Assembly (NCBI GenBank): GCA_963714085.1
Contig: OY970229.1
Location: 448,001-512,000 of the forward strand
Direction of reading: 5' to 3'
DNA length: 64,000 bases
DNA from: an uncultured Candidatus Micrarchaeota archaeon
GTDB lineage: Archaea; Micrarchaeota; Micrarchaeia; Anstonellales; Bilamarchaeaceae
The notes beneath the pieces were generated by a model. The model saw nothing but the letters and a program-made list of their open reading frames with translations, had not been told where the DNA came from and ran no database searches. Shown piece after piece: positions 35,786-52,045 of the stretch. Numbering within the stretch: position 1 is the stretch's first letter; every line of letters begins with the position of its first letter. The translations under genes were made by a program, and so were the position numbers.

Positions 35786-36517
35786 ATGGCCAGCATAGAA
35801 ATCCACAGGACGGAGGCGATCAAGCTCCACGAGCCCACAATCGTGCTCGGATTCCCCGGCACCGGGCTGGTCGGCTCGGTCGCCGCATCGCAGATCGTCG
35901 ACGCCCTCGACCTCAAGTTTTGCGGCTACATAACCTCGCCGGATTTCGCGCCGCTCGCCGCCATACACAACTACATACCGCTGCCCGCTGCGCGCATACA
36001 CTACTCCCAGAAGCACAACCTGGTCGTGATACTCTCCGAGATGTCCATACCGGTCGCCAACTCCATGGAGCTGGCGGACAAGATATTCGCGTTCGCCAAG
36101 TCGCTGCACGCGAAGTCCATAATCTCCATAGGCGGCATATCGCTCAAGGAGGAGGACAGCGCGGTCTACGTCGTATCCACGGACAAGGGAATGGTGAGGG
36201 ATATCATCGCGAGGAAGATCGCGAAACCGATACGCGAGGGCGCGACCACGGGGGTGACGGGCGTGCTGCTCGCAAAGGGCGTTCTTGAGAACTTCCCGGT
36301 GATGACGATACTGGCCGAGGCCGAGCAGGATTTCGTGGACCCGAGGGCCGCCTCCAAGGCGCTCAAGGTGCTCAGCGAGTTCATAAAGACCCCGATAGAC
36401 ACTACGGAGCTGGACAAGGAGCAGGCCGCGATAGTCAAGTCCGCCGGCGACAAGATGATAAAGTCGAAGATATCCAAGAAGGGCCCGATGGCGGGCGAGA
36501 GCGGAATGTACGGGTGA
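35786..36517 (+). CDS. PAC2-family proteasome assembly chaperone
   Basis: GFPGTGLVGS, ISIGG, DPRAA, C-terminal HbYX MYG. Confidence 0.9.
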   Translation: MASIEIHRTEAIKLHEPTIVLGFPGTGLVGSVAASQIVDALDLKFCGYITSPDFAPLAAIHNYIPLPAARIHYSQKHNLVVILSEMSIPVANSMELADKIFAFAKSLHAKSIISIGGISLKEEDSAVYVVSTDKGMVRDIIARKIAKPIREGATTGVTGVLLAKGVLENFPVMTILAEAEQDFVDPRAASKALKVLSEFIKTPIDTTELDKEQAAIVKSAGDKMIKSKISKKGPMAGESGMYG

Positions 36518-36521
36518 TATA

Positions 36522-36830
36522 ATGGCCTGGCCGCCTCCGCCCGTAGAACCGCAGCCGCCCGTTCCCGGACTCTGCCAGAGTTGCGGCATGCCCATGACCA
36601 AGGAAGGCGACTTCGGCACCAACGCGGACGGCAGCAGGAACGCTGATTATTGCGCGCACTGCTTCAGCAAAGGCGCTTTCACGGAGCCCGGCATGACGCT
36701 GGAGCAGATGATAGAGCGCCTTGTGCAGTTCGCGCCCAAGATGAACATGCCGGAAAACAAGGTCCGCGCCATGGCGAAGAAGAACCTGCCCAATCTGAAA
36801 AGATGGCGCGCGTCTGCCGGGAAAAAATGA
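36522..36830 (+). CDS. Zinc-ribbon protein
   Basis: CQSCGMPM...GT.ADGS...YC.HC...LP.LKRW. Confidence 0.88.
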   Translation: MAWPPPPVEPQPPVPGLCQSCGMPMTKEGDFGTNADGSRNADYCAHCFSKGAFTEPGMTLEQMIERLVQFAPKMNMPENKVRAMAKKNLPNLKRWRASAGKK

Positions 36831-36833
36831 GCT

Positions 36834-37718
36834 TCAGAACAACGACGCGGGCGTCAAATCCGCGCGGCTTCTGACGTATTTTGATTCCAATTTAGCTATT
36901 GAATCGTCCAGACCATCAGCCGGAAGGCCGAGCGCGACGACTGCGTCCTTGAGCTCGTGGAGGTGCTCGCCGTAATCCGGGGATATCGGCAGCATGACGA
37001 ACCTCACCAACGCGTTCTTCGCGAGCGCATCCGCGAGGCCGGGGAGCAGCTTATCCTTGTAGACCGTATTCGCGGCGTTTATGATCCCTGCCAGCTGCGG
37101 GCCTGGCATCGTCGCCTCCTGCTCTTTCCCTACGCAGCGCATGAAGAGCAGCATCTTCGGGTGGTTGAGCGGCACGGTGCCCATCGCCATCCCCCTTCCC
37201 AGGAATATCATCCTTCCGGTATCGTCCGGCTTGGAGACGTCCGGGTGCTGGGAGCGGCAGACGACATAAGTGGGCTTGGCTGCGGCGAGCGCTGCGGAAT
37301 AAAGCAGGAGGTGCATATCCCTCCTGTTGCCGCTGAAGACCTCGGAATGGAGCAGCACGAGGAGCGTGGAGGCCTCCTGCTTGACCACGCAGCCTTCGGC
37401 GGCCGCTGCGAGCGCGCCTGACCTGTCCTTCACGCATACCAGGAGATAACCGGGCAGGGCTGTGTCCTTCGACTTCAGCAGACGCAGGGCTTCTTTCTGG
37501 TCCTTGGAGCCAAGCGAGGGCTGGAAGACCGTGAGACCGGCCTCGTCCATGATGCTTTTCAGGCGCCGCGGGTTCTCCCACGAAGGAAGCAGCTCGAACG
37601 CTGGGACGAGCGGCGGGGCTGCTTCGGGCTGGGGCGTAATCTCCGGCGTTATCTCTTCTTGCGCCTTGGTCGGGCTCGGCTTCGTCTTTTCCGGCGCGCT
37701 GCTTTTCTTCCCTGCCAT
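36834..37718 (-). CDS. Hypothetical protein
   Basis: Long ORF with a Pro-rich N-terminus; no confident motif. Confidence 0.7.
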   Translation of the reverse strand: MAGKKSSAPEKTKPSPTKAQEEITPEITPQPEAAPPLVPAFELLPSWENPRRLKSIMDEAGLTVFQPSLGSKDQKEALRLLKSKDTALPGYLLVCVKDRSGALAAAAEGCVVKQEASTLLVLLHSEVFSGNRRDMHLLLYSAALAAAKPTYVVCRSQHPDVSKPDDTGRMIFLGRGMAMGTVPLNHPKMLLFMRCVGKEQEATMPGPQLAGIINAANTVYKDKLLPGLADALAKNALVRFVMLPISPDYGEHLHELKDAVVALGLPADGLDDSIAKLESKYVRSRADLTPASLF

Positions 37719-37800
37719 GGGACTGCATAATCAGATGAGATTTAAATAAACTTCTCCAATCCACGCTTTTGGATGGCATGAAAAACGGTTCCGGCAGGAT

Positions 37801-38991
37801 TCATGCCTTCCTGAAAAGGGACCCGAACATCGAGAGCAGCCCGGATTTTTCCGCGCTTTCCGCCTTGCGGTCCGGATTCCCGGAATCCAGAAACTCGATC
37901 AGGCGCGCGACGTCCTTCAGCTCTGCTTCGAGCTCCTTTTTCGAGTATTTGGCGAGCTCTTCCCTGCGTTTGGCGAGGCGCCTGCTTTTCTCGTACTCCT
38001 CTTCGTAAGCGCGCCTCTCCTTCCCCAGGCTCCTCAGGTCTTCGACTGTCTTTCTCTCGCTTTCGCCCATCGCGGAGTAGAAATCCAGCGTCCTCTCGTC
38101 CAGGCCGTCCACTGCCAGGAAGCCGGCCTGGGCGAAGGAGCGCACGGCCTCGAAAAACGCCGCATTGGAGGCGACGATCTTCCTGAACCTGGAGGTCTCG
38201 GGGCAGATGTGCGAGAGCTTCTTCTCGCTGTAGGTCAAGCACTCGCAGAGCTGGCCGACATCGTACCTGCCGAAGGACGGATAATCTGAGAAAAACTGCT
38301 TGAGCTGGGCCATCGCCTCGTTTTCCGGGAAGGACGGGCAGTGCTCTTTCAGGCCCTCCAGCTCACGGAGCAGCTCGGCCACCGGCTTCGAGAGCAGCGA
38401 ATGCAGGTACGCGTCCCTCGATCTCCTCAGCGAGTCCAGGCCTTTCTCGAGCTCGCCGTGCCTGCGGACCTTCTCCTGGTCGATGGTCTCGTTTTCGAGC
38501 TCCGAGATATCGGCCAGCAGCTTCTCAACCCGCAGCTGCTCCCTTCTGAGCGCCCTGCCGCTCTCCTTGAGGTCCTCTTCGGCTTTCTCATAGCTGTCGC
38601 TCAGCTTGATGATACCGTCGAAATACGCGAACTCCTCTTTAGCGGCCGGTATCTTGCCCTCCCGTGCGAGCCTTGCGATGGATGCGAGCCTCTTCCCGGT
38701 GGCCTCAGGCAGATTGCCCTTCTGGAACTCGCTCGCGGCCCACCTTTCGAAATAGACGGAGTCCTTGGACAGTTCCATGGCTCTCTTGGCCATCTTTATC
38801 CGCGTGCTCACTGCCGGGTTCCAGACGGTTTTTCCCTTCTCCTGCACGTCCTCTATCTCGGCTATGAGCAGTTTCAGCTGCTTGGAAAGCTTCACCGTAG
38901 CCGGGCGGTGGCTGGTTCCAATCGTTTCCACTCTCTTTGCCAGGTCCTTGTGCGTTTTTTTAAGCTCGCGTATTTCCTCTTCGCTGATCAT
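37801..38991 (-). CDS. Coiled-coil hypothetical protein
   Basis: E/K/R-rich heptads throughout. Confidence 0.75.
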   Translation of the reverse strand: MISEEEIRELKKTHKDLAKRVETIGTSHRPATVKLSKQLKLLIAEIEDVQEKGKTVWNPAVSTRIKMAKRAMELSKDSVYFERWAASEFQKGNLPEATGKRLASIARLAREGKIPAAKEEFAYFDGIIKLSDSYEKAEEDLKESGRALRREQLRVEKLLADISELENETIDQEKVRRHGELEKGLDSLRRSRDAYLHSLLSKPVAELLRELEGLKEHCPSFPENEAMAQLKQFFSDYPSFGRYDVGQLCECLTYSEKKLSHICPETSRFRKIVASNAAFFEAVRSFAQAGFLAVDGLDERTLDFYSAMGESERKTVEDLRSLGKERRAYEEEYEKSRRLAKRREELAKYSKKELEAELKDVARLIEFLDSGNPDRKAESAEKSGLLSMFGSLFRKA

Positions 38992-39072
38992 CCGGTTCGC
39001 CCGCTCCCCTTAGCTTATTATGATTATTCAGGTATTTAAATTCGTTGCCGTTTGTGTGCAGGCGGCATTGAT

Positions 39073-39085
39073 TGCAGGAGGAAGG
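39073..39085 (-). repeat. att-like copy of tRNA-Leu 3' end (distal boundary)
   Basis: TGCAGGAGGAAGG, 13/13 match to 50325-50337. Confidence 0.75.
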
Positions 39086-39191
39086 GCCTCAGAACAGCTC
39101 TGAAAGTGCAAGGTAAATTTTTCTATTTTTTTCAAACTTAGTTGCTTGTCCATTTATTAAATTGAAATCAAAAGCTAAAAATAGAAAAAAA

Positions 39192-39470
39192 CTAATCTTC
39201 CGGCATTATTGGGCTTCTCTCATCTGTAAGAGCGAAATATGACTGAAATTTAGCCCGGTATGAAATATATTTCAGGATCCAGCTATGGAGGGCCTTGTTC
39301 CGTTTCCCCGTTATCAAAATATGAAGGAACTGAAAGAGGCAAGTTAAGACACCAATAATAGCAAGTACGATAACGACTATTAGCGATGGTATCATCCATA
39401 AGATCCTTATAATCAGCTCCCACCTGCTTGCTTTTTCAGAGAAGGCCACATTGAATTTAACGTTTTTCAT
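39192..39470 (-). CDS. DUF4389-like small membrane protein
   Basis: SRWELIIR...ILITGKRN..L...Y..LTDE.SP; AT-rich; start at ATG 39470. Confidence 0.75.
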   Translation of the reverse strand: MKNVKFNVAFSEKASRWELIIRILWMIPSLIVVIVLAIIGVLTCLFQFLHILITGKRNKALHSWILKYISYRAKFQSYFALTDERSPIMPED

Positions 39471-39535
39471 AATCCAAATTAGCAAGTATAAATTTAAATG
39501 ACTCTCGATAACAAATTTTAACGCTGAAATGGGTG

Positions 39536-39607
39536 GCCCTCGTAGTCTAGCCTGGATAGGACGCAACCCTCCGGAGATTGATTGAGGTTTAAATACCCGA
39601 CAAAGCA
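39536..39607 (+). pseudogene. Degenerate tRNA-Arg(CCG)
   Basis: Intact 5' half GCCCTCG-TA-GTCT-AGCCTGGATA-GGAC-G-CAACC-CTCCGGA-GATTG; T arm and 3' acceptor strand decayed. Confidence 0.7.
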
Positions 39608-39752
39608 CCCTTTTTAACCTCTGGCCCTCAGACGCTCATTTGGTCGGACGGACACCACTGGTCTGAACTCAGACCAGATCTGAAAGCGCTAGGGCAGGAC
39701 TTCAGATCAGATATGAGTTCCTAAAAAGGCAGGAACTAAGAGTAGATTAAAA

Positions 39753-39913
39753 TGCAGGAGGAAGATGCCGAGACCAGGGCTCGGAACAGAACATTTCCAG
39801 TCCCGAACGATTGGCTCGGTTTCCATGCCTGCACTATCATTTTGGTTCAAGTCAAACCCTGTTTTGACCTCCTAACCGAGGGCTCTTCTGCGGAGAGAAC
39901 TATTTAAAGCTAG
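39753..39913. repeat. att core plus left arm, copy A
   Basis: Aligns with 41623-41790; last 54 nt differ at 4 positions. Confidence 0.9.
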
Positions 39914-39920
39914 CTCTGAG

Positions 39921-41078
39921 TTATTTTCCATTGCCGTTCAATTCAACCATATCCTCGTCATGAACCGGTCGGAACCACTTTTGCGCTATGAATGTCGGAA
40001 TCACTGCGCTGGTTATGACTACGGCGATAAGGACCGAGAACTGGATCTGATTGACATAACCTGCCTGATAGCCGAAAACGCTGGCAATCGTGCCGAAGGT
40101 CAACCCCGTGCTCATAAGCAGCGTCGTGTACATGCCACCTTCGGGGATGTATTTCTTGGCAAGGAAGTACACGCCTAGGAATTTCGTGATTTGTTTTAGC
40201 AGGAAGAGCGTGACAAACAAGCCGAATGCCGCAACGACCAAGGGAACAGACACCTTCATACCGTCGGTTATGAAGAAGAACGGCGTGATGAGGGCGTATG
40301 CCACGGTTCTGAGCCGATTCCTTACCGCCAGCGTTTCGGGGCTTTCCGTGAAATGCTTCGACATGGCAAGACCTAGTACGAAGGCAGGCAGGACGGCCTG
40401 GCTATCCCCTATCGCCGCGAAATAGCTGAAAATCAGTAAAAGGACAAAGATGTACTTGATTTCCGGCTCTATCACCTTGCCTTTGAGAAGAGGGTTATCG
40501 AAGACCAGATGGGAAAATTTCGTCGCGATCCATATAACTACTATTGAAACGGCGAGGAAAACCCAGGTGTAGAAGGAAGGCTTGATGAAAAGGATGGTGA
40601 GGGCTAGGACCGTGCAAATATCGGTTACAAACGTGGCAGCCATGATGAGTTTCCCCAGCTTCGTTTTCGTCAGGCCTGTCTCGACCAGCACCGAATACAC
40701 GACAGCCAGGGAGGTCGTAGACAGCGCGGCACCCGCGATGAGGGAGGCGTTCAGCGTCCAGCCAGCCATGTAATATGTGTACAGAAACGCGCCCAAGAAG
40801 GGCACGAGAAACGAAGCACAGCCTATCAGCATGCTCTCCTTGAATTTCTCCCGCATCAGGTCGACATCTACTTCGGCGCCTGCGAGGAACGTTAGTAAGA
40901 TGCTGGCGAATCCCGCAAGATAAGTCATCCACGGCTGGGCTTCGATGCCGAGATAGTTGCCTGCGATTACACCTAGGAGAATCTCGATGATGGCAACTGA
41001 AAGCCCAAGTCGAAGAGAGATGAGGCTAGCCAAAAATATCAGCATACCTGCTGCTAAAGGAATCAAAGTCGCATCCAT
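39921..41078 (-). CDS. CPA2-family cation:proton antiporter
   Basis: Polytopic membrane protein; FLAGAEVD, ALSTTSLAVV, AATFVTD, PFFFI; start at ATG 41078 after AAGGTG. Confidence 0.9.
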   Translation of the reverse strand: MDATLIPLAAGMLIFLASLISLRLGLSVAIIEILLGVIAGNYLGIEAQPWMTYLAGFASILLTFLAGAEVDVDLMREKFKESMLIGCASFLVPFLGAFLYTYYMAGWTLNASLIAGAALSTTSLAVVYSVLVETGLTKTKLGKLIMAATFVTDICTVLALTILFIKPSFYTWVFLAVSIVVIWIATKFSHLVFDNPLLKGKVIEPEIKYIFVLLLIFSYFAAIGDSQAVLPAFVLGLAMSKHFTESPETLAVRNRLRTVAYALITPFFFITDGMKVSVPLVVAAFGLFVTLFLLKQITKFLGVYFLAKKYIPEGGMYTTLLMSTGLTFGTIASVFGYQAGYVNQIQFSVLIAVVITSAVIPTFIAQKWFRPVHDEDMVELNGNGK

Positions 41079-41102
41079 GGAGAACACCTTTCAACACGGA
41101 TG

Positions 41103-41237
41103 CTAAAACGATTTCAGGAATCCGTCTTTCCCCAATCTGAATTTATGCTCCGGGTTCTTGGGGCAAACGAATACATCGTCCTTCTTGGACAACTGATAGT
41201 TCATGCTGGAATTCATGCGGCATGTCGGACATACCAT
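41103..41237 (-). CDS. Small Zn-ribbon protein (44 aa, not in ORF track)
   Basis: MVCPTCRMNSSMNYQLSKKDDVFVCPKNPEHKFRLGKDGFLKSF; AGGTGA RBS; lies between riboswitch and antiporter. Confidence 0.65.
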   Translation of the reverse strand: MVCPTCRMNSSMNYQLSKKDDVFVCPKNPEHKFRLGKDGFLKSF

Positions 41238-41275
41238 CGTATACTCACCTGTCATGGGCATCTACCTCTTGAAAA

Positions 41276-41334
41276 GTAGAAGCTATCAGCCCGTTTGGGC
41301 GGTTTGGCTTTTGCCAGGTGAGCTTCATCGCCTA
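41276..41334 (-). ncRNA. Fluoride (crcB-class) riboswitch
   Basis: GGCGATGAAGCTCACC...AAACCGCCC-AAAC-GGGCTGATAGCTTCTAC fits GGCGAUG..GUUCGCC...ACCGC...GCUGAUGAC..CUAC; GAAGC/GCTTC pseudoknot pairing is kept. Confidence 0.88.
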
Positions 41335-41419
41335 TCAAAGATTACACAAATAATCTTTAATAGCATTTTGGTTTGATTGGTTTGGATTCCTGCAGTCCCG
41401 AGATTCGTATGGAGTACTA

Positions 41420-41622
41420 CCCAAGAGTCCTGAGACCTGGTCTCTGAACATAAACATAAAGATTGGAACCTCGGTTCGAATCTCCAAAACCGCATTTTGT
41501 GTCTTCAGCTACCATAAAATCGTCGAAGAATGCCATTAGGGAACTGAAGAAAATAAAGCAGCAAAACAGAATGGAACCATTGGTTCGGTTCTTTTTCCTG
41601 CGGATTCGAACTAAAATGATGA
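41420..41622. repeat. Right arm, copy C
   Basis: Collinear with 50123-50324 (GTTCGAATCT, GTCGAAGAATG, AGAAAATAA, CATTGGTTCGG.TCTTTTTC). Confidence 0.85.
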
Positions 41623-41790
41623 TGCAGGAGGAAGATGCCGAGACCAGAACTCGGAGCAGAGCCTTCTCTGCCCCGTCCGTTTGGTTCGAGTCTTCCTTCT
41701 CCAATAACATTTTGGTCCAGGTCAGAACAAACCTCTTGTTTTGACCTCCTAACCGAAGGCTGTTCTGAGGAGAGAACTATATAAAGCTAG
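41623..41790. repeat. att core plus left arm, copy B
   Basis: TGCAGGAGGAAGATGCCGAGACCAG identical to copy A; shared terminal block. Confidence 0.9.
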
Positions 41791-41903
41791 GTCTCTGGTT
41801 TCGCTATTTTCCACAATGCCTCGAAATATGTTTCGAAGCTTTTAACCGCTTCCTCGCTTTCGATGAGAAACCCTTTCGGCTCGCGGGTAAAGGAGACCGC
41901 CAT
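41787..41903 (-). pseudogene. C-terminal remnant of a TrmB-like regulator
   Basis: AVSFTREPKGFLIESEEAVKSFETYFEALWKIAK resembles the TrmB effector-domain tail; no N-terminal HTH upstream. Confidence 0.55.
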
Positions 41904-41977
41904 GGAAGGCGAGGGAGTGCAACGGCCAGTTCTCGCTGAACGTGCTGAAGCCGGATCATTGAGGGTACGCACTGCAC

Positions 41978-42757
41978 CTAAGCTGATCGCAGTAGCGCCG
42001 CATCCGGATACCGATAGGCGCTGCCGATGCCATCCTGCCGTACCAGTTCCGCAAGGGCTTGCGGTGAGAATGCAGCTACTGAGAGGGCCGCCGTCCCCAT
42101 GGCTGATTCTATGCCTTCGAGGTCGTCCACCAGGTGTATCGGCATCGCTGAAAAACTGCCCTTTCTTTTCAGGCATTCGATTATACCCACCTTTTCTAGG
42201 ATGGCGTCGCGGGTCAGTCCAACGCGCCTCAATTCCACGAGCCTGGCGCAAACATCCGGTGGTGCCCTGAAACCAATAACATCCGGCGTCCCTACTGACT
42301 CTGGTCTGTGGATGGTGAATTTCCGCGCCGATAGTCTGTGAACTAATATGTTTCTAAGTACATGCAAGCATCCGCCATCATCGAACAGGCGCTCTATCCC
42401 GTATTCGCCTGATTTGGGCCGATAGGATAGGATTCCGTGGCCAAACTCAGGAAATTCGGCTGCAAGGAAGATGAACAGGTCGGCAATCCCAGGCCTTGGG
42501 TGGAATACTCGCTCCGGCATTTCGAATCCGAGTGTGTTGTCAAGATCCCAGAAAACCATGGCCCGCCCTGCTTTTGCCCACTCTTGGCAGGTCCGGAAAA
42601 CCAGGATGGTGAATCCGATTTCGTTCCCGATGATTCCTGCCTTCGCGTCTTCTTTACGCGTGCAGATAAGCTGCTCCATCAGTGCTTTTTGCCGGCTTAA
42701 GAATTGCCGCAAGCGGGGCTGGACATTTTCGCTTATGGTTGATATGAGCGCACCCAT
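41978..42757 (-). CDS. HAD-superfamily-like protein
   Basis: Motif I VFWDLDNTL, RPG, ILS, motif IV LVDDL. Confidence 0.65.
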   Translation of the reverse strand: MGALISTISENVQPRLRQFLSRQKALMEQLICTRKEDAKAGIIGNEIGFTILVFRTCQEWAKAGRAMVFWDLDNTLGFEMPERVFHPRPGIADLFIFLAAEFPEFGHGILSYRPKSGEYGIERLFDDGGCLHVLRNILVHRLSARKFTIHRPESVGTPDVIGFRAPPDVCARLVELRRVGLTRDAILEKVGIIECLKRKGSFSAMPIHLVDDLEGIESAMGTAALSVAAFSPQALAELVRQDGIGSAYRYPDAALLRSA

Positions 42758-42814
42758 GTTAGTATCAGTGCAATTTCAAGTTTATAAATTATATGGTATT
42801 TATTGTATAGTTAT

Positions 42815-43840
42815 ATGTGTTCTCAATCGCGCGCGTGCCGCGCTGGCAGCAGGGAAAAAGTCAAGGTGGCGTTCATCGGAGCCGGGAATATCGCAGCGCA
42901 GCACATGCGAGCGCTTGTCGCATTCCCAGACGTCGCGGTGGAAGGGGTTTGCGACGTCAGTAAAAGCGTCCTTGAGCAAAGGCGTCTGGAGTTCGGCGTA
43001 GGTACGTATTCGTCCGTGGGCGCCATGCTCCGCTCGGTTTCTCCTGACGCCGTGTTCATCTGCCTTCCACCCTACGCCCACGGTGGTGCAGAGCGGGCCT
43101 GCATAAGCCGTGGCATCCCGTTCTTGGTTGAGAAACCACTGTCCAATGACCTGTTCCTTGCCAGGAAAATAGCAGCCGAGGTCCGCAGGACTGGACTGCT
43201 GACCTCCGTCGCCTACATGAACCGTTATAGGCGGAGTGTCCAGAGGGCCAAAGAACTGCTCGGCAAGCATCCCCCCGTTCTGATTGACGCTGGCTGGCGT
43301 ATAGGCACGCCGCTGGGCCACCCTTGGCTGACCCAAAAACGCCTCTCGGGAGGGCAGCTCCTCGAACAGACCACACACTTATTCGACCTCATCAGATACC
43401 TTTGTGGGGAAGCCGCCAGCGTCTATTGCTGCGGCGCTAGGGGCTTCGTTCCAAGGAGCCGCGCATACGATACGGATGATGCGACTGTCGTGAGCCTGTG
43501 CATGAGAAACGGTGCGGTAGCCTCGATACAGAGCTCCTGGTCAAGCGGATTATGCGACATGATACATATCAGGTTCCTCGGACCGGCGATAATGGTGGAA
43601 CTTACTGGCTGGAACCAGGATGCGAGGATAGTCACCAAAAGATCGAGTGTGGAGATAAGCGGCGAAGAGGATATTTTTGCCATCGAGGACAGGGCCTTCC
43701 TGCATGCAGTGAGGAGTGGCGACTCTTCCGGCGTACTCAGCGACTATGGCGAAGGCGTGAGGAGCCTGGAGCTGAGCATTGCAGCCAACATGAGTCTGGA
43801 AACCGGAAAGCCGATCAAACTTCGTGGAGACGGGAAATGA
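42815..43840 (+). CDS. Gfo/Idh/MocA NAD-dependent oxidoreductase
   Basis: FIGAGNIA, ICLPP..H, VEKP, SGG.LLEQTTH.FD. Confidence 0.93.
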   Translation: MCSQSRACRAGSREKVKVAFIGAGNIAAQHMRALVAFPDVAVEGVCDVSKSVLEQRRLEFGVGTYSSVGAMLRSVSPDAVFICLPPYAHGGAERACISRGIPFLVEKPLSNDLFLARKIAAEVRRTGLLTSVAYMNRYRRSVQRAKELLGKHPPVLIDAGWRIGTPLGHPWLTQKRLSGGQLLEQTTHLFDLIRYLCGEAASVYCCGARGFVPRSRAYDTDDATVVSLCMRNGAVASIQSSWSSGLCDMIHIRFLGPAIMVELTGWNQDARIVTKRSSVEISGEEDIFAIEDRAFLHAVRSGDSSGVLSDYGEGVRSLELSIAANMSLETGKPIKLRGDGK

Positions 43841-44315
43841 TCTCCTTTACCGCATCTTCCACCCGTCCGGAGATGTCGATGGTCGTGCCGTAATCTAACC
43901 TGGCAACCAGCCTGTAGACGTCTCTGACAGCCGTTTTTCCGTAAGGCGCGGCCCGCTTTCTGTCCCTTTCGATGCAGATCTCAAGCGGCGCATTCAGGCT
44001 GAATACGAAACCCCGGTAGGGGGACAAGCGGCCCATCAGGTCGTCTATGGCTTCCCTGTGGTAAAAGCAGGCGTCAAAAATCACAATCCGGTCGCCGTCA
44101 AGGTTTTTCCTTGCAGCCGGAGCCATCAGCCTGTCTGCTTTGATGAAGTTTTCAACAGGGATGCAGCCGATTTTCGTATCGATGACGTCCAATCCATTCT
44201 CGGCAAGGACGGCATCAACCGAAACATAAGCGGCTCCCATAGCTGCAGCTATTTTACTTGCAATGGTTGTCTTGCCGCAGCCCAGCGGCCCCCTTATGAT
44301 TACGAAATATGCCAT
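43815..44315 (-). CDS. Small P-loop kinase (gluconate/shikimate/nucleotide kinase-like)
   Basis: RGPLGCGKTT, VIFDA, APLEICIERD.KR. Confidence 0.85.
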   Translation of the reverse strand: MAYFVIIRGPLGCGKTTIASKIAAAMGAAYVSVDAVLAENGLDVIDTKIGCIPVENFIKADRLMAPAARKNLDGDRIVIFDACFYHREAIDDLMGRLSPYRGFVFSLNAPLEICIERDRKRAAPYGKTAVRDVYRLVARLDYGTTIDISGRVEDAVKEIISRLHEV

Positions 44316-44478
44316 GGCAGGTCCCAGCGTTCCGGATTGGTTGGTTTCCCTTTTGTATCCCCCTCCCTGGTATTAAATATTCGCCTCAGCCAGCCGCCAC
44401 GGGAGTCCAATTAAAATCTTACACATTTATTTACCTAACAAAACATTATTATACTTTTTCATGGTATAATTAGCAATC

Positions 44479-45660
44479 ATGAATCATTTGGCGTATGCAG
44501 GAAATACTGCAGCTGAAGTTGCGCAGAAAGGCGCTCCGGCAAAGACCAAGATTTCCCTACTGTCGAAAGGCATCGCCTTCGACCTGAGTCTATTCAAGGA
44601 CTTCCCAGGCACTTTCTATGATAACCAGTATGTGTACGGGAGGACCAGCCAGGGTGCCCTGCCTGAGCACAGACTGCCTCAGATACTGAGACTGGGGGAC
44701 GGCGTGGTTACCGCGCTTTTAAGGCGCCGGAACAGCCCCTGGCAACTGAAACTAGAGGGCGAAATTCCGCGGCTGTATTTTGGAGGCAAGTACGTCCAGG
44801 ACGTGGAGCTTCCGGAACGGCCCCCATATTTCGGAAAAGTGCTTGGCGACGGCATTCGGAGCGAATCAGTTATAGCTGTCGCTGGAGAGAGCACGCCAGG
44901 ATTCTTCCTTTATCCGAGATGCTTCTATTTCGGCAGGGGCGAGCCCTGTGGCTTCTGCTCGCTCAAAGGCAACCGTGCGACTTCCGGTAGAGCTATGGCC
45001 ATGGACTTCACGGAAGACCTCGTCGGCAAGGCGACGCGGCTTTTCCAGAATACCGCGTGGAAGGGCATCCCGGTAATATCCATCAGCGCCGGAACCCCAG
45101 CCACGGACGAGGAAAGCATGGAGCAGGTAATCAGGCTGATAAGGGCGGTCTACGACGCCCTCGACCCGAAACTGCCCATCCACGCCCTCGTCCATCCGCC
45201 GAACGACCTGAACCTCATAGAACAGTACAAAAGGGCCGGCCTCACGTCCATCGCTTTCAACCTCGAGGTTTTCGGCAGGGATGCTTTCGCGCGGCTCTGC
45301 CCGGGCAAGGAGAAATTCTATGGTTACGACAGGTGGCTCGAAGCGCTCCGAGTGGCGAGAGACGTTTTCGGCAAGTACTCCGCCTTCTGCGGCCTCGTTT
45401 GGGGTCTTGAGCCTGCCGCCAGCACGATGGAAGGCAACAGGTATTTTTTGGAGAACGGTATCGGCATCGCATCCAACATATTCCACGCGGACCAGCATTC
45501 GCTGATGGCCGCATATTCGCATCCTGCAGAGGAGCTGATACTGGAAGTCGCCATGAACCAGCGGCAGCTATACGCTGAGCATCCTGACGCGAGGACCATC
45601 TTTCCCGTCAGCATGAGGAGCACGCTCGACTGGGAAGTTAAACGGGGTGACCTTGGGTGA
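44479..45660 (+). CDS. Radical SAM protein with non-canonical CX8CX2C motif
   Basis: CFYFGRGEPCGFC; ISAGT; AFNLE.F......CPGK; GLVWGLE. Confidence 0.85.
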   Translation: MNHLAYAGNTAAEVAQKGAPAKTKISLLSKGIAFDLSLFKDFPGTFYDNQYVYGRTSQGALPEHRLPQILRLGDGVVTALLRRRNSPWQLKLEGEIPRLYFGGKYVQDVELPERPPYFGKVLGDGIRSESVIAVAGESTPGFFLYPRCFYFGRGEPCGFCSLKGNRATSGRAMAMDFTEDLVGKATRLFQNTAWKGIPVISISAGTPATDEESMEQVIRLIRAVYDALDPKLPIHALVHPPNDLNLIEQYKRAGLTSIAFNLEVFGRDAFARLCPGKEKFYGYDRWLEALRVARDVFGKYSAFCGLVWGLEPAASTMEGNRYFLENGIGIASNIFHADQHSLMAAYSHPAEELILEVAMNQRQLYAEHPDARTIFPVSMRSTLDWEVKRGDLG

Positions 45661-46787
45661 GCGTGTACGTCGATTGCGTGGGCTGCGAGCAGAGGAAACT
45701 GGACGCGCAGAGGCTCGTGAACTGCTTCAGGGCCAATGGGGCGGGGATTGTCAGCTCGGCTAGGAAATGCAACCACGCGGTGCTGGTGACCTGCGCAGTT
45801 GATTCTTCCAACGAAGAACGGTCGCTTTCCATGCTGGACGCAGTATCGCGGGAGTTACCGGAAGGTGCCGGGATGTACATCGGGGGGTGCCTGCCGTCCA
45901 TAAGCCCCGGCAGACTTTCCGGCTATCATCTTCACGGGACATTCTCTCCGCGGACTATGGGAAGCCTTGACGCTATGTTCAACTTTGCAGTGCCAATGGA
46001 TGCAATCGCCAGGCCGAATCGGTCAGTTTTCGATTCCAGTGCGGAACCGATCGGAGTGGTTTCCCCCAGGCAGGCTTACGACGATGCGAAAGCGGGGTTC
46101 AAGGTCGTAATAGACGACGGCTGCCTGATGGGCTGCTCGTACTGCGTGATAAAGCGAGCCACAGGCAGCCTAAGGAGCATGAGCGCGGAAAGCATCCTGG
46201 CGCAAATCAAGGATGGCATCTCAAGAGGCGAGAAGACGATAATGCTCATGGGCGGGGACGCTGGCGCCTACGGGAAGGACATCGGAACCGGGCTGCAGCG
46301 ATTGCTCTCCGACATCCTAGCAATTCCATCAGAGTTCAGGCTCTTCATACACGATTTCAACGTGAACTGGCTGATACGTGGCGCGGAAGAGTACCTCCGC
46401 GTCTTTTCATCCTCTGGCGGCAGGAAAATCGGCGCAATATGCTTCCCCATCCAGTCTGGCAGCGACCGCATACTGGCCTTGATGAAAAGGGGCCACACGT
46501 CCGGGAGCGCGGCCGAGGCGCTTAAGCAGGTCCGCTCTGTTTCGCCCGGCATGGGCCTAGGCACCCATGTGATAATCGGTTTTCCTAGCGAGGCTGACGC
46601 TGATTTTGCAGCTACGATGGGCATGCTCGAATACGTCGGTTTCGATTTCATCACCTGCTTCCCATACTCTGAGCATGCGTTGGCCGGTTCCGCTGCCCTG
46701 GCTGGAAAGGTCGGACCTGAAGCCGTGGAAGCCAGGTTCGAAAGAATATCCTCGGTGTTTGGGGACCGAGTGAAAATAGTGAGATGA
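45657..46787 (+). CDS. MiaB/MtaB-like methylthiotransferase radical SAM protein lacking TRAM
   Basis: N-terminal GC...TC...GGC cluster domain, GCLMGCSYC, QSGSDRIL.LMKR, IIGFPSE; ends soon after FPYS. Confidence 0.88.
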   Translation: MSVYVDCVGCEQRKLDAQRLVNCFRANGAGIVSSARKCNHAVLVTCAVDSSNEERSLSMLDAVSRELPEGAGMYIGGCLPSISPGRLSGYHLHGTFSPRTMGSLDAMFNFAVPMDAIARPNRSVFDSSAEPIGVVSPRQAYDDAKAGFKVVIDDGCLMGCSYCVIKRATGSLRSMSAESILAQIKDGISRGEKTIMLMGGDAGAYGKDIGTGLQRLLSDILAIPSEFRLFIHDFNVNWLIRGAEEYLRVFSSSGGRKIGAICFPIQSGSDRILALMKRGHTSGSAAEALKQVRSVSPGMGLGTHVIIGFPSEADADFAATMGMLEYVGFDFITCFPYSEHALAGSAALAGKVGPEAVEARFERISSVFGDRVKIVR

Positions 46788-46791
46788 CGGC

Positions 46792-48675
46792 ATGGCGGTC
46801 TTGTGCGTTGCCAGGGATTTTACAGCGCTTCACGGTACGAGAAGCGTGAAAAGGGACGGGTTCAGGGCCGAGGTCAGGCTCTCCGGAAATATCTCCAAAG
46901 GTTTTGTCAGCGGCCTGGACCACGCAACGTTGCAGAAAGCCCTGGGTGAAACCGTGGCGCGGCTGGAAGGTTCGTATCTCGACGACGTGGTCGGCAGGGC
47001 AACCAACGAAAACATTGCCCTTTATATAATGCACTCGCTGGCCGGCCTGCCCGTGGGTTCCGTGCTGGTGAGGGAAGGCCAGGGGCAGTCAGTGGAAGTA
47101 TCTTCGTCAGACCTGGATTCAAGCGCTTATCCGGCATACTTATATTTGAGCAGGGCGCAGAGCTTGCTGCTCAGGGATAAGATTCTAGAAGCCACGGCTG
47201 CCGCGGAGGCAGCCATAAGGCTGGACCCCGCCGTGGCCGAAGCCCACAATCTCATGGGCAGATGCCAGAAATACCTTGGGCACAATGACCTGGCTGCTGA
47301 AAGCTATGCGAGGGCTGTGGTCCTGCAGCCTAATTTCGGAGATGCCTACCGTAACCTCGGGAATGCGTACCTTGAACTAGGCCGGTACAGTGAGATGGCC
47401 GAGGCGTTCGCCAGGGCGACGGAGCTGACACCCGGTTCGGCTTTAGCATTCAACAACCGCGGTTTCGGGTATCAGAAGCTTGGTGACCTCAGGCGGGCGC
47501 TTGAGTGCCATTCGAAGGCCATAGAACTTGACCCGCATTACGCTGAAGCCTATGAGGACAGGAGCAAGGTGCACGAGGCACTTGGAAATGCCGAGATGGC
47601 CAGGCAGGACGTCGCGACGGCGAAGGAACTGATATCGTCAGGAACTGACACCTATTCGCCAATCACGCCATATTATGATGGCAATGCCATGCCCAGATAT
47701 GTGCCGCCGGATCTGTATTACGGTATCGCAGTCTATAACGAGGAAGGGAACATTCGCAGGTGCCTGGATTCGCTTGAGCGGCAGAGCTTCGAGGGCAGGG
47801 TCGAGACCATCATCTGCCTCAACGGCTGCACTGACCGGAGCGAGAAGGAAGCCCATGAAGGCAAGGCGAAGTACCCAGGGCTGAACGTAAAAATCATACA
47901 CAGCAAAAAGAAGGGCAAGGCGTTCGCCCAGAACCAGATTATCCGCTCAATCAGGGACAGGACCGTTCCCATAGCCTTCATAGACGCCGATGTGGTGCCG
48001 GAAACTGACTGCATGGCAGTTCTGGAGCGGGAGTTACGCAGCCTGAAGCAGCTCGTTGCCGTGGGCACATGGCCTGAACCTGAACGCGGTCCACGGCAGT
48101 CCCTCTGGCAGCGATTCCTTTACTGGATATTGTATGCCCGGGCCTTTTACCCGCAAGCCGAAGTATCCGGGCATGACGTTTCTGCATACAAGCGCTTTGC
48201 CAGGCAAAACCCACAGCCCCTGGTGAGTCCTGAGTTCGAGATGCGCTCGAAGATATTCTTTCACGGTAGGACGTTCATGCTGAGGAATGCCTCCTTCTTT
48301 CGCCTGCCGGAAGATGCAAACGTGGCAGACGATACCTACCTGCCGAATTTCATCCATACGACATACGGTCCGGGTACCGTAAGGATAAGATACGACGCCA
48401 AGGTGCTCTACAAGCCATATCTCTCGCTAAGGGCGCATTTCAAGGCCTACTGGCGGGTGTACTCAGACCTTCGGAGAATGGACCTGGAAGGCGCTTTTGC
48501 GGAGTCTAGGAAGCTGGAAAAGACGAGGCTTGACTGGAAGTTCATATTTTCAAAAGGCATTGCCACGTCCCTGCAGTTCGCGATATACAGGTTCGTCGTA
48601 GGAGTTGAACGGGCGCTCTACCATATGCTTCCGGAAAAGAAGCTGGGCGAACTCTGGTATTATCAGAAAAAATAG
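46792..48675 (+). CDS. Fusion of degenerate QueD/PTPS-like T-fold, TPR array and GT2 glycosyltransferase
   Basis: FTALH...YLDDV...TNENIA; TPR repeats (AHNLMG, AYRNLG, AFNNRG); YNEE, NGCTD, DAD, ADD. Confidence 0.8.
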   Translation: MAVLCVARDFTALHGTRSVKRDGFRAEVRLSGNISKGFVSGLDHATLQKALGETVARLEGSYLDDVVGRATNENIALYIMHSLAGLPVGSVLVREGQGQSVEVSSSDLDSSAYPAYLYLSRAQSLLLRDKILEATAAAEAAIRLDPAVAEAHNLMGRCQKYLGHNDLAAESYARAVVLQPNFGDAYRNLGNAYLELGRYSEMAEAFARATELTPGSALAFNNRGFGYQKLGDLRRALECHSKAIELDPHYAEAYEDRSKVHEALGNAEMARQDVATAKELISSGTDTYSPITPYYDGNAMPRYVPPDLYYGIAVYNEEGNIRRCLDSLERQSFEGRVETIICLNGCTDRSEKEAHEGKAKYPGLNVKIIHSKKKGKAFAQNQIIRSIRDRTVPIAFIDADVVPETDCMAVLERELRSLKQLVAVGTWPEPERGPRQSLWQRFLYWILYARAFYPQAEVSGHDVSAYKRFARQNPQPLVSPEFEMRSKIFFHGRTFMLRNASFFRLPEDANVADDTYLPNFIHTTYGPGTVRIRYDAKVLYKPYLSLRAHFKAYWRVYSDLRRMDLEGAFAESRKLEKTRLDWKFIFSKGIATSLQFAIYRFVVGVERALYHMLPEKKLGELWYYQKK

Positions 48676-48697
48676 CTGTGGATGGAGGGTGAGAATC

Positions 48698-50017
48698 ATG
48701 CAAAAGAAGCTGAAACGAGGGCCTCCGGCCCATGAACGTCCGATGTGGCGCCTTGCACGAAACATGACGCCTTGCGCGACGGAGATAGTGAGTGGAAAGG
48801 GCATATATTTCAGGGACAGCAGTGGCAAGGAGTACATGGACCTGACCGCCCAGACACTCAACCTGAACCTCGGCCACCGCCATCCGTCCATAATGCGGGC
48901 CGTGCTTGCGAAGCTGCGTGAAGACGGATTTACCTACTACGTGTCGCCCAGATTCGGAAACCGCCACGTCTCGCAATTGGCGCAGAAGCTGGTTTCGCTG
49001 GCTCCTGAGGGTCTCAACAGGGTGAACCTGCACTTGTGCAACGGAAGCGACGCGAACGAGGACGCGATAAAGCGGGCGAGGAAGTACCACGACGGAAAGA
49101 GGATGACGATAATCTCGTTCAAGGGAAGTTTCCTGGGGACTTCCTGCGAATCCATCAGCGCGTCCGGTGGCAATTTCTACAAGGAGGCGTGCCTTGGTGG
49201 CTCAGGGCAATATGTCTTTCTGGACTCCGTGATGCCGAATAGGATACCGAAGGGGTCCAGCCTCGAAGAGGAGGTCCAATCCAGGCTCATGGACGTGGAA
49301 CAAACTATCAAAAGAAGGAGGGACATAGCCGGAATCATAATGGAGCTAGTCCCTTTCAACGCAGGAGTCATCGTCCTTCCGAGGGAATATGTGAAGGGGA
49401 TAGAGAGGATATGCAAGGAGAACGACGTGGCGCTGCTGGTGGACGAGGTCCAGACCGCCTTCGGCTGGTGCGGCGACGTATTCGCGTCGAATGTATATGG
49501 CATAAGGCCCGACGTGATAACCCTGGCCAAGGGGATGACGGCCGGCTTCCCTGCCCTGGCGGCAACAGTCTTCAAGGCGAAATACGACGTCCTGACGGGC
49601 GGGACTTCCGAGAACACATTCGGCGCTCAAACGCTCGGCTGCGTGGCGACGATCGCGAACATCGACTATCTGGTTTCGTCCGGCATAATGGATGCGATAC
49701 CAGCAAAACACGCCTTGTTCATGGAGCACCTGGAAAGGATGAAAGACGCGTATCCGTTCATAGGCGACGTCAGGGGAATAGGGCTGATGTTCGGAATAGA
49801 CTTCGTTCGCGCTGACGGAACGCCCGACATGGAGACGAACATCGACGTCTACCAGGCGGCGTTCATGCGTGGATTGTCAGTAAACGTCTCGACCTCCCAA
49901 AGGGGAAAACACAACGTGATAAGCCTCAAGCCGCCCCTGACGATAACATTAAGGGAAATAAACGAGGCTATGAGTCGTCTGGGCGATGCCATGCGCTCCG
50001 TAGCGAAGAAAAGATAA
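48698..50017 (+). CDS. Class III PLP aminotransferase
   Basis: GKEYMD, NLGH, GSDANE, DEVQTAFG, PD.ITLAKG, VRGIGLM; ATG 48698 after GGAGGGTGA. Confidence 0.93.
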   Translation: MQKKLKRGPPAHERPMWRLARNMTPCATEIVSGKGIYFRDSSGKEYMDLTAQTLNLNLGHRHPSIMRAVLAKLREDGFTYYVSPRFGNRHVSQLAQKLVSLAPEGLNRVNLHLCNGSDANEDAIKRARKYHDGKRMTIISFKGSFLGTSCESISASGGNFYKEACLGGSGQYVFLDSVMPNRIPKGSSLEEEVQSRLMDVEQTIKRRRDIAGIIMELVPFNAGVIVLPREYVKGIERICKENDVALLVDEVQTAFGWCGDVFASNVYGIRPDVITLAKGMTAGFPALAATVFKAKYDVLTGGTSENTFGAQTLGCVATIANIDYLVSSGIMDAIPAKHALFMEHLERMKDAYPFIGDVRGIGLMFGIDFVRADGTPDMETNIDVYQAAFMRGLSVNVSTSQRGKHNVISLKPPLTITLREINEAMSRLGDAMRSVAKKR

Positions 50018-50122
50018 TAGAGCTGCACAGTTTTTGGCATGCCTTTGACACGTCAGTTCTTTGCCAAACTTTTTTCCTAAAAAGGTAGGTGCAGAAGATA
50101 CCGAGCCATAAGAAGAACCTTG

Positions 50123-50324
50123 CCCACGAGATCCCAGACTAGGGCTCGGAGCATCCGCTTAGAGATTAGAACCAAAGTTCGAATCTTCAAGAGTGCATTT
50201 CGTTTTGTCAGATACAACAAATATGTCGAAGAATGATGCTAAAATAATTAGAAAATAATTCAGCAGAAAAGATTGGAATCATTGGTTCGGGTCTTTTTCT
50301 TGCAGTCCCGAACCTTTGATTCTA
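50123..50324. repeat. Right arm, copy D (abuts the tRNA 3' end)
   Basis: Collinear with 41420-41622; contains inverted repeat GGTTCGGG...CCCGAACC at 50284-50314. Confidence 0.85.
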
Positions 50325-50409
50325 TGCAGGAGGAAGGATTTGAACCTTCGAAGGCACTAAGCCAGCGGATCTTAAGTCCGCCGCGTTTTCCGGACTTCGC
50401 TACTCCTGC
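50325..50409 (-). tRNA. tRNA-Leu(TAA)
   Basis: Acceptor GCAGGAG/CTCCTGC, anticodon arm GCGGA-CTTAAGA-TCCGC, variable arm, GTTCAAATC. Confidence 0.95.
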
Positions 50410-50436
50410 ATGATTAGAAAATATTTATCCAGACTG

Positions 50437-51387
50437 CTATAAAAGCCTCGCTTTTTTGCCGTCGAAATAGATGTCCTCCTCGAACCGGACGCCGAAATCT
50501 TCGAAATACGCGCTCGGCTCTATGGCCATGGTCGCCCCGGCGAGCTTGTCCTTCGACTTCATGCTGAGGCGGGGGTATTCGTGCACCTCCAGGCCGATGC
50601 CATGGCCGATGGCGTGGGGCAGCTCGGGAAGATTGTGCCTCTTGAACAGCTTTCTGGAGAACGCCGTCAACTCCGAGCCGGTGTCCAGCTCCGGCATCGC
50701 GTCGATTATCTCGTTGAACACTTCCTGGAGCTTCAGGTAGACCGCCTTCTTCTTCTCCTCGCCCATGAAGAAGCACCTCGTGAGGTCCGATGAGTAGTAT
50801 TCGGCGCGCACGCCGAAATCCACGAGCACCATGCTGTTTATCTTCGCATTCCCGGTCCGGTAGTGCGGGAAGGAGGAATTGCGGTCTGCGGCCACTATTG
50901 CCTTGAACGACACGTCCAGGTCGCGCTCCAGGGTCCCGGCCATGAGCTGCTCCCTGACCTGTGATTCGGTCATGCCCTTCTTTATGTCCAGGGATTGCAA
51001 TATCTCCCTGGCGCTGTGCACCGCCTTCTTTACCTTGTCCACCTCCTCCATGGTCTTGGCCATGCGGCGCCTGCAGAGCTCCTCCGAGACGTCCACCGGC
51101 GTGCAGAATTTCTTGAGATGCTCCGTGAGGCGGAAGTACATGCTGCTGCCGTCGACGCCCACCTGCCTGCCCTTGGCCAGCTTCCGCAGCTCGGCTATCG
51201 GGTCCTGATATGGGACGACGCTGCCGCTGAACTGCTCCTTGGCTATCTTGAGGTTCATCCGCGGCACGAGCAGCACCTGCGTGCTGCCGTCCACGAAAAG
51301 GAAGGAGTGGTCGATGTCCACGTTCGAGTAATGGTAGAAGTTGGCGTTGAAATGCTCGTCCCTGTAGAGAAGCAGAGGGTATTTCAT
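50437..51387 (-). CDS. M24 Xaa-Pro peptidase
   Basis: FPH, DFG....YSSD.TR, HAIGHGIGLEVHE, IEP, GVRFEED. Confidence 0.93.
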   Translation of the reverse strand: MKYPLLLYRDEHFNANFYHYSNVDIDHSFLFVDGSTQVLLVPRMNLKIAKEQFSGSVVPYQDPIAELRKLAKGRQVGVDGSSMYFRLTEHLKKFCTPVDVSEELCRRRMAKTMEEVDKVKKAVHSAREILQSLDIKKGMTESQVREQLMAGTLERDLDVSFKAIVAADRNSSFPHYRTGNAKINSMVLVDFGVRAEYYSSDLTRCFFMGEEKKKAVYLKLQEVFNEIIDAMPELDTGSELTAFSRKLFKRHNLPELPHAIGHGIGLEVHEYPRLSMKSKDKLAGATMAIEPSAYFEDFGVRFEEDIYFDGKKARLL

Positions 51388-51476
51388 GGTGGAGAATCCC
51401 GCCTCAGGATTAAATTGCTTGCGGTCGGGCCGTGCTCACGCATCCATCTCGTGGGAGCCGGAATCGTCCTCGAGGA

Positions 51477-51860
51477 TCATACGAACCCCACCTTGGCCTT
51501 AGACCTCAGGCCCACGACCCTCAGGCGCTCGGCTTTGAGCCGCTGCTTGAGCCCGCGGTCGTTGGTGCACACCACCGCGCGGTTCTGCCTGGCGTACTCG
51601 AAGAGCCAGTCGTCCACCGGCAGCTTCGACTCCACCTGCTTCGCCTTCTCCCCCCTGGATTCTAGGATCTTCAGCGCGAAGCGCGCCGCGGCCCCGGTCC
51701 TGCCCGGATTCCTGGCGATGCCCCGGAGCTCGCCGACGACCTTGGAGGGCACCACGAGCGTGAAGGGCCCGTCCAGCAGGCGCTCGAGCTCGGTGAACAC
51801 GTCCACCTTGAACTGGTAGGGTACGAGAAGGAAATTGGTGTCCATAATCACTTCGGTCAT
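51477..51860 (-). CDS. PIN-domain protein (Fcf1/Utp24-like)
   Basis: IMDTNFL, V..EL, VDD, CTND..L. Confidence 0.88.
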   Translation of the reverse strand: MTEVIMDTNFLLVPYQFKVDVFTELERLLDGPFTLVVPSKVVGELRGIARNPGRTGAAARFALKILESRGEKAKQVESKLPVDDWLFEYARQNRAVVCTNDRGLKQRLKAERLRVVGLRSKAKVGFV

Positions 51861-52045
51861 GGCAGTTATTAGAAGCTAATGGGATTAAAATAGAATAGGT
51901 GGAATATATACGTTACGGGAGCGAAAATGGCATTTGTTGGTATATACGGTTAGAAGAGGAGTTAAAAGGAATGTTTAAAAATGTTTTGGTTCATAAACAC
52001 TTTAGTACAAAAATTTAAACAACAATAGAGAGCGGGTGATGAGGG

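Follow-up and report, generated by a model that had tools for sequence, protein, structure and literature searches.

Behind the tRNA-Leu(TAA) gene of an uncultured Micrarchaeota archaeon (genome G000, one contig of 1.57 Mb with 57% G+C), the 64,000-nt stretch of DNA analyzed here, which we call the window, carries an array of three stacked units of 0.7, 1.9, and 8.7 kb, each running from one copy of a 12-bp core to the next. The core, TGCAGGAGGAAG, is the tRNA gene's 3' end, and exact copies of it lie at positions 39073, 39753, 41623, and 50325. An earlier note on this DNA had drawn attention to these four copies and to the units of ~0.7, ~1.9, and ~8.7 kb that they bound, and had reported left and right arms common to the two larger units. 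Both descriptions hold: between units 2 and 3, identity is 79% over 174 nt for the left arms (E = 1.6e-34) and 71% over 218 nt for the right arms (E = 7e-22). The earlier note had placed arms on these two units alone; unit 1 also has arms, of another family. We name the arm types Y for unit 1, and X (left) and Z (right) for units 2 and 3. The boundaries and arms, which can be read directly from the window, are as follows.

39073..39084, +, distal core copy, a displaced tRNA-Leu 3' end and the outer edge of the array (exact 12-mer)
39085..39108, +, remnant of the Y-type left arm of unit 1, of which the core-adjacent 17-bp palindrome alone is left
39601..39751, +, Y-type right arm of unit 1 (similarity and profile match)
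39753..39764, +, core copy at the boundary of units 1 and 2 (exact 12-mer)
39765..39918, +, X-type left arm of unit 2 (similarity and profile)
41419..41621, +, Z-type right arm of unit 2 (similarity and profile)
41623..41634, +, core copy at the boundary of units 2 and 3 (exact 12-mer)
41635..41794, +, X-type left arm of unit 3, with an inverted tRNA-end relic at 41683-41704 (similarity and profile)
50122..50323, +, Z-type right arm of unit 3 (similarity and profile)
50324..50410, -, tRNA-Leu(TAA), whose 3' end at 50325-50336 is the target core (tRNA call)

The 12-mer is rare enough in this genome for its clustering to be telling, a point that the earlier note had raised. An order-4 Markov model predicts 0.96 copies genome-wide and 0.0035 on one strand of the 11.3-kb array, against six exact copies observed in the whole genome, four of them in the array; shuffled sequence gives a mean of 0.52 matches per window with one mismatch tolerated. 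The remaining two exact copies belong to an intron-bearing tRNA-Leu(CAA), which ARAGORN mis-calls as Pro, and to a 0.9-kb unit behind tRNA-Leu(CAA). In the congener G001 (G001 and G002 are congeners, and the other G and L codes used below denote related genomes and arm-bearing loci of relatives) an outermost core lies at the equivalent place, before the same flanking gene as in the window. At the boundary of units 2 and 3 the order is Z arm, core, X arm, the sequence layout expected of a circle junction. Codon usage also sets the cargo apart, with a G+C content at third codon positions of 0.47-0.71 compared with 0.80-0.86 in five host genes.

That the array is an assembly artefact or a set of chance repeats is scarcely credible. 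The arm copies differ by 21-29%, too much for collapsed repeats, independent assemblies show the architecture again, and the chance expectation for the core is the 0.0035 given above; on the other side, among the contigs listed, none spans the whole stretch. Contigs of run X1, which may be the source sample, provide depth in 30/30 bins of positions 36500-52500. Run X2 yields short contigs identical to unit 3 and leaves units 1 and 2 without cover; its contig on the neighboring peptidase gene differs at 32 of 383 letters, the variant letters matching G001 at 14/30 places and G002 at 7/30. We dropped run X2 as a sign of transfer, since a depth of ~3 in a mixed sample cannot show transfer. Elsewhere in the window, direct repeats of 95-207 nt at 29157-31001 (spacing ~1.17 kb, 74-82% identical) represent a tandem gene duplication that includes the upstream region.

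The arms have an internal order of their own. Next to the core, at a fixed distance from it, sits a 17-bp palindrome, which is paired at at least 6 of 8 positions in 8/10 X arms and 6/7 Z arms, compared with 3% and 6% of control windows. In the X arm of unit 2 the palindrome is followed by a worn, inverted relic of the tRNA end (~39813-39833) and by a motif ending in an inward-facing TATA-like box, a motif weakly common to X and to the reversed Y right arm. A 9-base box, which was derived from these same arms, is 60-fold denser in them than genome-wide (4.09 versus 0.066 per kb). The unit 2 X arm has 83% identity with the G072 element's arm and 86% with that of a unit in L151, and the last 20 nt of the unit 2 Z arm match those of X-clade integrase elements (defined below) at 16/20 positions; apart from these last ~20 bases the Z arm is unlike the integrase-promoter arm. 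The right arm of unit 1 is 77% and 74% identical over ~150 nt to the arms of two tRNA-Leu(GAG) units, and its left-arm remnant at 39085..39108 gives no match to the Y left-arm profile. Y arms occur in this genome on unit 1, on a 20-kb integrase/VirB4 element at tRNA-Leu(GAG), and on the 1.66-kb unit neighboring that element. Two integrase-less hybrids, L123 7664-9977 and L120 3367-6696, join an X left arm to a Y right arm, which shows that arm types recombine.

Sequence searches found neither an integrase nor an integrase relic in units 1, 2, or 3, and no replication protein was found among the cargo open reading frames (ORFs) scanned against Pfam and NCBIfam, one 259-aa ORF being without assignment; the earlier note had said as much on both counts. 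The genome encodes three tyrosine recombinases, each edging its own element, at tRNA-Leu(GAG), tRNA-Glu, and tRNA-Asn, and none lies in or beside the array. All three retain a double zinc ribbon at the C terminus as well as the catalytic motifs, which are present in 5/5 integrases checked. Because all three belong to other elements, a dedicated host enzyme acting as helper is not supported. The best virus matches of the helper are integrases of archaeal pleomorphic viruses (35-38%). The element at tRNA-Asn (1258496-1289255 of this genome, 30.7 kb) has its own, more distant integrase, a long repeat that reaches past the tRNA end, and cargo that by inspection is restriction-modification-like.

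In a tree of 30 relatives, the integrases of X-armed and Y-armed elements form separate clades (100/100), the X clade comprising those of G072, G084, L150, G109, and L175. Identity of the resident integrases to the X clade is only 43-63%, so that units 2 and 3 are without a cognate helper here, whereas a Y-clade helper for unit 1 is resident, although the left arm of unit 1 is eroded. The bases flanking the core tell the same two element types apart. Those of unit 2 match G072 at 16/20 and 40/45 positions versus 8/20 and 20/45 for the resident GAG element, and those of unit 3 at 11/20 and 34/45 versus 5/20 and 22/45. G072 is a 24-kb, VirB4-bearing X-clade element at a tRNA-Leu(TAA), and would be the kind of visiting element able to serve units 2 and 3. 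The search for a tyrosine recombinase bearing the same arms, which the earlier note had proposed, thus succeeded within this genome for the Y arms of the GAG element, while the X clade was found only in relatives.

The X arm holds a second copy of the tRNA end, inverted and ~60 bases from the core. It is well preserved in G072 (19/22) and worn in units 2 and 3 (12-13/22; 13/22 in unit 3). In G109 and G024 the part of the arm beyond the inverted copy stands directly behind the tRNA in the opposite orientation; in G109 both cores are intact and are followed by an integrase of the X clade, with 82% identity to the G072 enzyme. Both layouts would follow if a circle with two inverted cores integrated through either one. 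A single old rearrangement would be an alternative account of the two.

The arms recur widely among the relatives. The search for them in this genome and its relatives, another of the checks proposed earlier, finds them flanking different cargo, with the Y junction matched in 27/98 genomes of the family and the X/Z junction in 13/98; outside the family the Z arm gave only three marginal matches (E = 8-9e-4) among 401 genomes of the class. In viruses the X pattern matched 0 loci and the Y pattern four, without an arm, tRNA, or integrase match. Differing arrays at one and the same tRNA are seen in the congeners. The G001 array comprises a 2.1-kb integrase-less Y unit followed by a unit beginning with an integrase, and on a second contig of G001, linked to the first by inference across a contig gap, a Y arm stands beside the tRNA. 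G002 has one Y-armed methylase unit whose outer core is lost. This site differs wholly between the window and the two congeners.

We delimited by hand a set of 33 core-to-core units with both ends visible, omitting units cut by contig ends. Six belong to this genome (its tRNA-Glu, Asn, Thr, and Lys units being omitted) and the others were drawn from arm-bearing loci of relatives. Nine carry a full integrase and 24 do not. Sizes of the integrase-less units range from 0.37 to 8.7 kb, with a median of 2.1 kb; no integrase relic was detected in any of the 24 by tblastn (best E = 0.023) or in any of the 22 tested by blastn. Next to the tRNA, 11 of 16 units lack an integrase. All seven complete X+Z units are integrase-less (window units 2 and 3, G081, G086, G088, L151, and L157), and they have no cargo DNA in common; that of L157 has the tRNA on one side and an intact integrase element on the other. 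Two Y units that lack an integrase and come from separate hosts, L151 3394-6043 and L113 7746-11914, share a shortened left arm and each encode an AAA ATPase (52% identity), and are possibly an old integrase-less lineage. This genome also holds two 0.8-kb units (159404-160221 and 1472726-1473487) bounded by copies of the tRNA-Thr(GGT) and tRNA-Lys(TTT) 3' ends, with no X, Y, or Z arms. In L033, L038, L041, L043, L112, L120, and L203, tRNA-Leu genes have several long insertions, some in the T arm, and ARAGORN misses or mis-calls such genes.

The cargo of the three units is as follows.

39192..39608, -, unit 1, DUF4389 membrane protein (PF14333, E = 5.8e-15)
39921..41087, -, unit 2, CPA2-type cation/proton antiporter (PF00999, E = 8e-38; TIGR00932 below cut-off)
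41103..41261, -, unit 2, 52-aa zinc-ribbon-like ORF (weak PF08274, E = 0.0035, below cut-off)
41270..41341, -, unit 2, fluoride riboswitch (Rfam RF01734, 41.6 bits versus a gathering threshold of 34, E = 7e-9)
41787..41909, -, unit 3, 3' end of a clipped gene with its stop codon inside the X arm (tail similarity)
41978..44315, unit 3, 259-aa ORF (-), Gfo/Idh/MocA oxidoreductase (+), and small P-loop kinase-like protein (-)
44479..50017, +, unit 3, operon (Pfam/NCBIfam)

The true start of the DUF4389 gene is probably further in, near 39470. The fluoride riboswitch of unit 2 precedes the zinc-ribbon ORF and the CPA2 antiporter gene instead of a crcB gene, and its region has two paralogous copies in this genome, at 171232-171499 and 1325496-1325727. 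The unit 3 operon encodes a radical S-adenosylmethionine (SAM) protein (NF045502), a methylthiotransferase-like radical SAM protein, a PTPS-like/TPR/GT2 fusion, and a class III aminotransferase, and is likely a biosynthetic or modification cluster; its DNA was matched in one of 175 other genomes of the order, and there in one gene. The first radical SAM protein has named relatives from Woesearchaeota, Aenigmatarchaeota, and Heimdallarchaeaceae, among others. The three-part fusion (46792-48675, +) joins a PTPS/QueD-like N terminus, itself a weak match (E = 0.0097, below cut-off), to TPR repeats and a GT2 domain. The clipped gene end gives no Pfam match at 41787..41909, and its product is 41-50% identical to the tails of proteins encoded at other loci (best E = 3e-6); it may be the tail of a TrmB-like regulator.

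The exchange of cargo between these units and other DNA is directly visible. At tRNA-Leu(CAG) of G071, an integrase-bearing element of 4.9 kb, with other arms than unit 2, holds cargo that matches the cargo of unit 2 at 79% identity over 1.4 kb. The G002 methylase is 94% identical to the methylase in the tRNA-Glu unit of this genome, compared with 65-70% for host genes, and its joint with the Y arm lies at a shared word of 8 bases. An AsnC-type regulator and a radical SAM gene, together the whole cargo of the L151 X+Z unit, are present as an arm-less block in this chromosome (1133667-1136420), 80% identical over 2.76 kb. Unit 2 and the L151 unit have mutually closest X arms (86%), yet lie at different tRNAs with unrelated cargo. 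Judging from these matches, cargo moves between platforms, and the gene clipped where unit 3 begins suggests that capture is imprecise. It is improbable that the integrase plays no part at all and that old arm scars merely serve as homology anchors between which RadA-type recombination swaps the cargo. Such recombination would suit cargo that changes while arms stay, and the 8-base joint of the G002 unit and the clipped gene of unit 3 do reveal non-specific joining; the arms, however, are short and only 50-86% alike between units, the conserved palindromic boxes at fixed distances from the core would fit protein binding better than homology, and the number and order of units differ between hosts in core-to-core steps.

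Since the arms flank other cargo elsewhere and also occur on integrase-bearing elements, the units are most likely moved by a recombinase in trans, and we read the array as a tandem accretion of non-autonomous units, bounded by attachment (att) sites and moved by a borrowed integrase, to which we give a probability of about 0.6. Units would originate from autonomous elements through loss of the entire integrase gene, and the X+Z type would then persist as a non-autonomous lineage whose cargo may be swapped between the arms by non-specific recombination. A co-resident or visiting element would supply the integrase for excision of a circle and its insertion at the tRNA end, and the same helper element probably also supplies a VirB4-type transfer machine. 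Each arrival would restore the tRNA and push older units outward, where their arms erode, an order of arrival that we infer. Barring cross-reaction by the integrases already resident, units 2 and 3 are expected to stay stranded here until a visit by an X-clade element.

Several observations weigh against this reading. Two of the junctions that the earlier note had proposed to look for in support of insertion in trans were not found. No empty site was seen among the relatives, in 13/60 of which the outer flanking gene was matched, and a tRNA-Leu(TAA) lies within 1.5 kb of that gene in 0 of 12 loci scanned; the sites of both congeners are occupied by other units, and the tRNA-Leu(CAA) of G001, with a flank that is not strictly syntenic, has no arm behind it. 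Nor was there a circle or excision joint in the contigs of three runs from one study, contigs being prone to drop rare variants, so that circles are not thereby shown to be absent; the one joint listed among the run contigs has nothing to do with the cores. A whole X+Z unit in near-identical form in two hosts, which would be a direct sign of transfer, was not found, and the integrase-less units share no interior stretch with three large elements, nor was a transfer origin identified. The genomes G066 and G089, both incomplete metagenome-assembled genomes, hold integrase-less units and give no PF00589 match. Moreover, it was the arms that led us to the units, many of which had themselves gone into building the arm profiles.

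A further group of such observations speaks for the view that the units are passive relics, which lost their own integrase in place, were pushed outward, and leave only with an autonomous neighbor or never. This is the textbook route to tandems of cis-mobilizable elements (CIMEs) (PMC5704250). The left arms of two small Y units are 92% identical to those of integrase-bearing elements and end at the integrase start, so that some integrase-less units arise afresh by deletion, as in-place decay predicts. The cargo of unit 2 also resides on an integrase-bearing element, and in G090 a unit with one X arm and part of a Z arm carries a Y-clade integrase. Ends are eroded in the left arm of unit 1 and the outer core of G086, besides the lost outer core of G002, and the X-clade integrase, and with it any cognate helper for the larger units, is missing from this genome. 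In-place decay nevertheless has to explain why a piece of the gene remains in 0/24 integrase-less units when both arms are mostly preserved, why none of the seven complete units combines the full Z arm with an integrase, why that arm is unlike the integrase-promoter arm beyond its end, and why the units nearest the tRNA are mostly integrase-less. We regard it as unlikely, if still deserving of real weight.

The earlier note had likened the array to an integron, and as a statement of membership this fails. A true integron-like platform, with a resident recombinase capturing single genes at folded single-stranded DNA sites behind a common promoter, is very improbable. The junction of units 2 and 3 does fold as single-stranded DNA better than shuffled sequence (z = -4.6 and -3.8), and the X arm does end in an inward TATA-like box. 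Against this, folding is uneven from arm to arm (z = +1.4 to -5.7); two of the three genomic integrases score 44.7 and 46 bits with the IntI model TIGR02249, far below its cut-off of 265; and a box-pair search that used the consensus RYYYAAC...GTTRRRY and no covariance model returned 0 attC-type pairs within 250 nt of any of the four cores on either strand. No recombinase lies beside the array, the cargo is multi-gene, in both orientations, and brings its own control, such as the riboswitch, and a common promoter in the arm was rejected because the first gene faces the X arm in only 5/10 units.

Starting from accretion by a borrowed integrase, a bolder proposal can be made, which we hold tentatively. 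The X+Z units may be a self-standing, gene-free vector family of Micrarchaeota with no integrase, two dedicated arms, and 1-8 kb of cargo taken from chromosomes or elements, moved by visiting conjugative elements; the two inverted tRNA-end copies ~60 bases apart in their parents would let one integrase clade dock either way, and the outcome would be an integron-like supply of genes to a reduced archaeal genome, with tRNA ends as its foundation.

These units offer a concrete, testable route by which reduced DPANN archaea may gain accessory genes, two short arms and a borrowed integrase bringing whole modules (a fluoride riboswitch-antiporter operon, a radical SAM cluster, methylases) to several leucine tRNAs. 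Hitch-hiking on a borrowed integrase is known from bacteria and has been little studied in archaea. The units are invisible to island finders that need an integrase, and in a bacterial survey att-bounded islands without an integrase trace made up only 6% (bioRxiv 10.64898/2026.01.13.699239). A 12-bp core common to several tRNA-Leu genes and a possible two-way site also make the integrases candidates for archaeal genome engineering. The concept being already known from bacteria, the surprise is limited.

The array is an archaeal variant of a kind known from bacteria; the novelty lies in the X+Z lineage, free of relics and with its cargo swapped, in the lack of a cognate helper, and in the dual-core site. 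The earlier claim that nothing of this sort had been described in such an archaeon stands for Micrarchaeota, for which we found no description of such arrays in a literature search with subscription journals mostly outside its coverage, and falls for the general kind, which has been described in bacteria as CIMEs and tandem cassettes. A 2024 survey of DPANN mobile elements in Nature Microbiology reportedly exists and may bear on novelty. CIMEs are described as having lost integration and transfer genes while keeping attL and attR, and as forming tandems by accretion (PMC5704250). The units resemble them and tandem accretion of the ICESt1/ICESt3 type in lacking integration and transfer genes, in keeping attL and attR, in their tandem position at one gene end, and in their relation to autonomous tyrosine-integrase elements; the left arm of unit 1 is only partly kept. 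The array differs in being archaeal, in having no autonomous element within it, and in the absence of integrase relics from 24/24 units, and also in that the Z arm seems proper to non-autonomous units and the swapped cargo points to mobility in trans, not only in cis. A derivation by decay, as for CIMEs, is supported for the small Y units by their 92% arms; for the X+Z units, the loci surveyed yielded no autonomous element with a full Z arm as a parent. Integrative mobilizable elements, by the definition in the same source, were set aside, as the units encode no excision or integration of their own.

Among tRNA-directed systems of archaea, re-use of one site is known to build arrays of tyrosine-recombinase elements (PMC6563490). 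SNJ2 is described with a 14-bp core at a tRNA 3' end and conserved P and P' arms, and its family as limited to Halobacteria and requiring two accessory proteins for integration (PMC5861418; PMC8371274). The short core at the far 3' end of the tRNA (14 bp in SNJ2, 12 bp here), the arms, and an intact "classical" tyrosine integrase are alike, whereas the integrases here have a C-terminal double zinc ribbon, a comparison made with the published description of SNJ2. Integrons, for which the published criteria include archaeal ones (PMC9668308), share an ordered array of recombinase-less cargo units at one site, but here there is no IntI, attC, or attI, the two arms differ, and multi-gene cargo of up to 8.3 kb lies in either orientation. 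Tycheposon islands, reported with serial partial tRNA copies (bioRxiv 10.1101/2020.12.28.424599), are likewise tRNA islands in which newcomers push older elements outward, but they encode their own integrase and have repeats of ~40 nt. The Dehalococcoides ssrA islands, 15 of which are reported to be without integration modules (PMC3146451), are also tandem, with boundaries formed by repeats of an RNA-gene 3' end and a conserved motif beside the repeat; they are bacterial, with a serine integrase, a tmRNA target, and a 20-bp repeat. By analogy, the best functional model is provided by the recombinase-less cassettes that resemble the staphylococcal cassette chromosome (SCC), such as ACME and COMER, which in tandem are excised singly or in groups by the Ccr of a neighboring SCCmec (PMC11470126). 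Like these, the units are tandem, att-bounded, devoid of a recombinase of their own, and dependent in our reading on an enzyme from another element; in the SCC-like cassettes this is a serine recombinase acting at rlmH from a helper within the array, with excision demonstrated by experiment, whereas here a tyrosine integrase encoded outside the array would act at a tRNA end and is predicted to excise the units.

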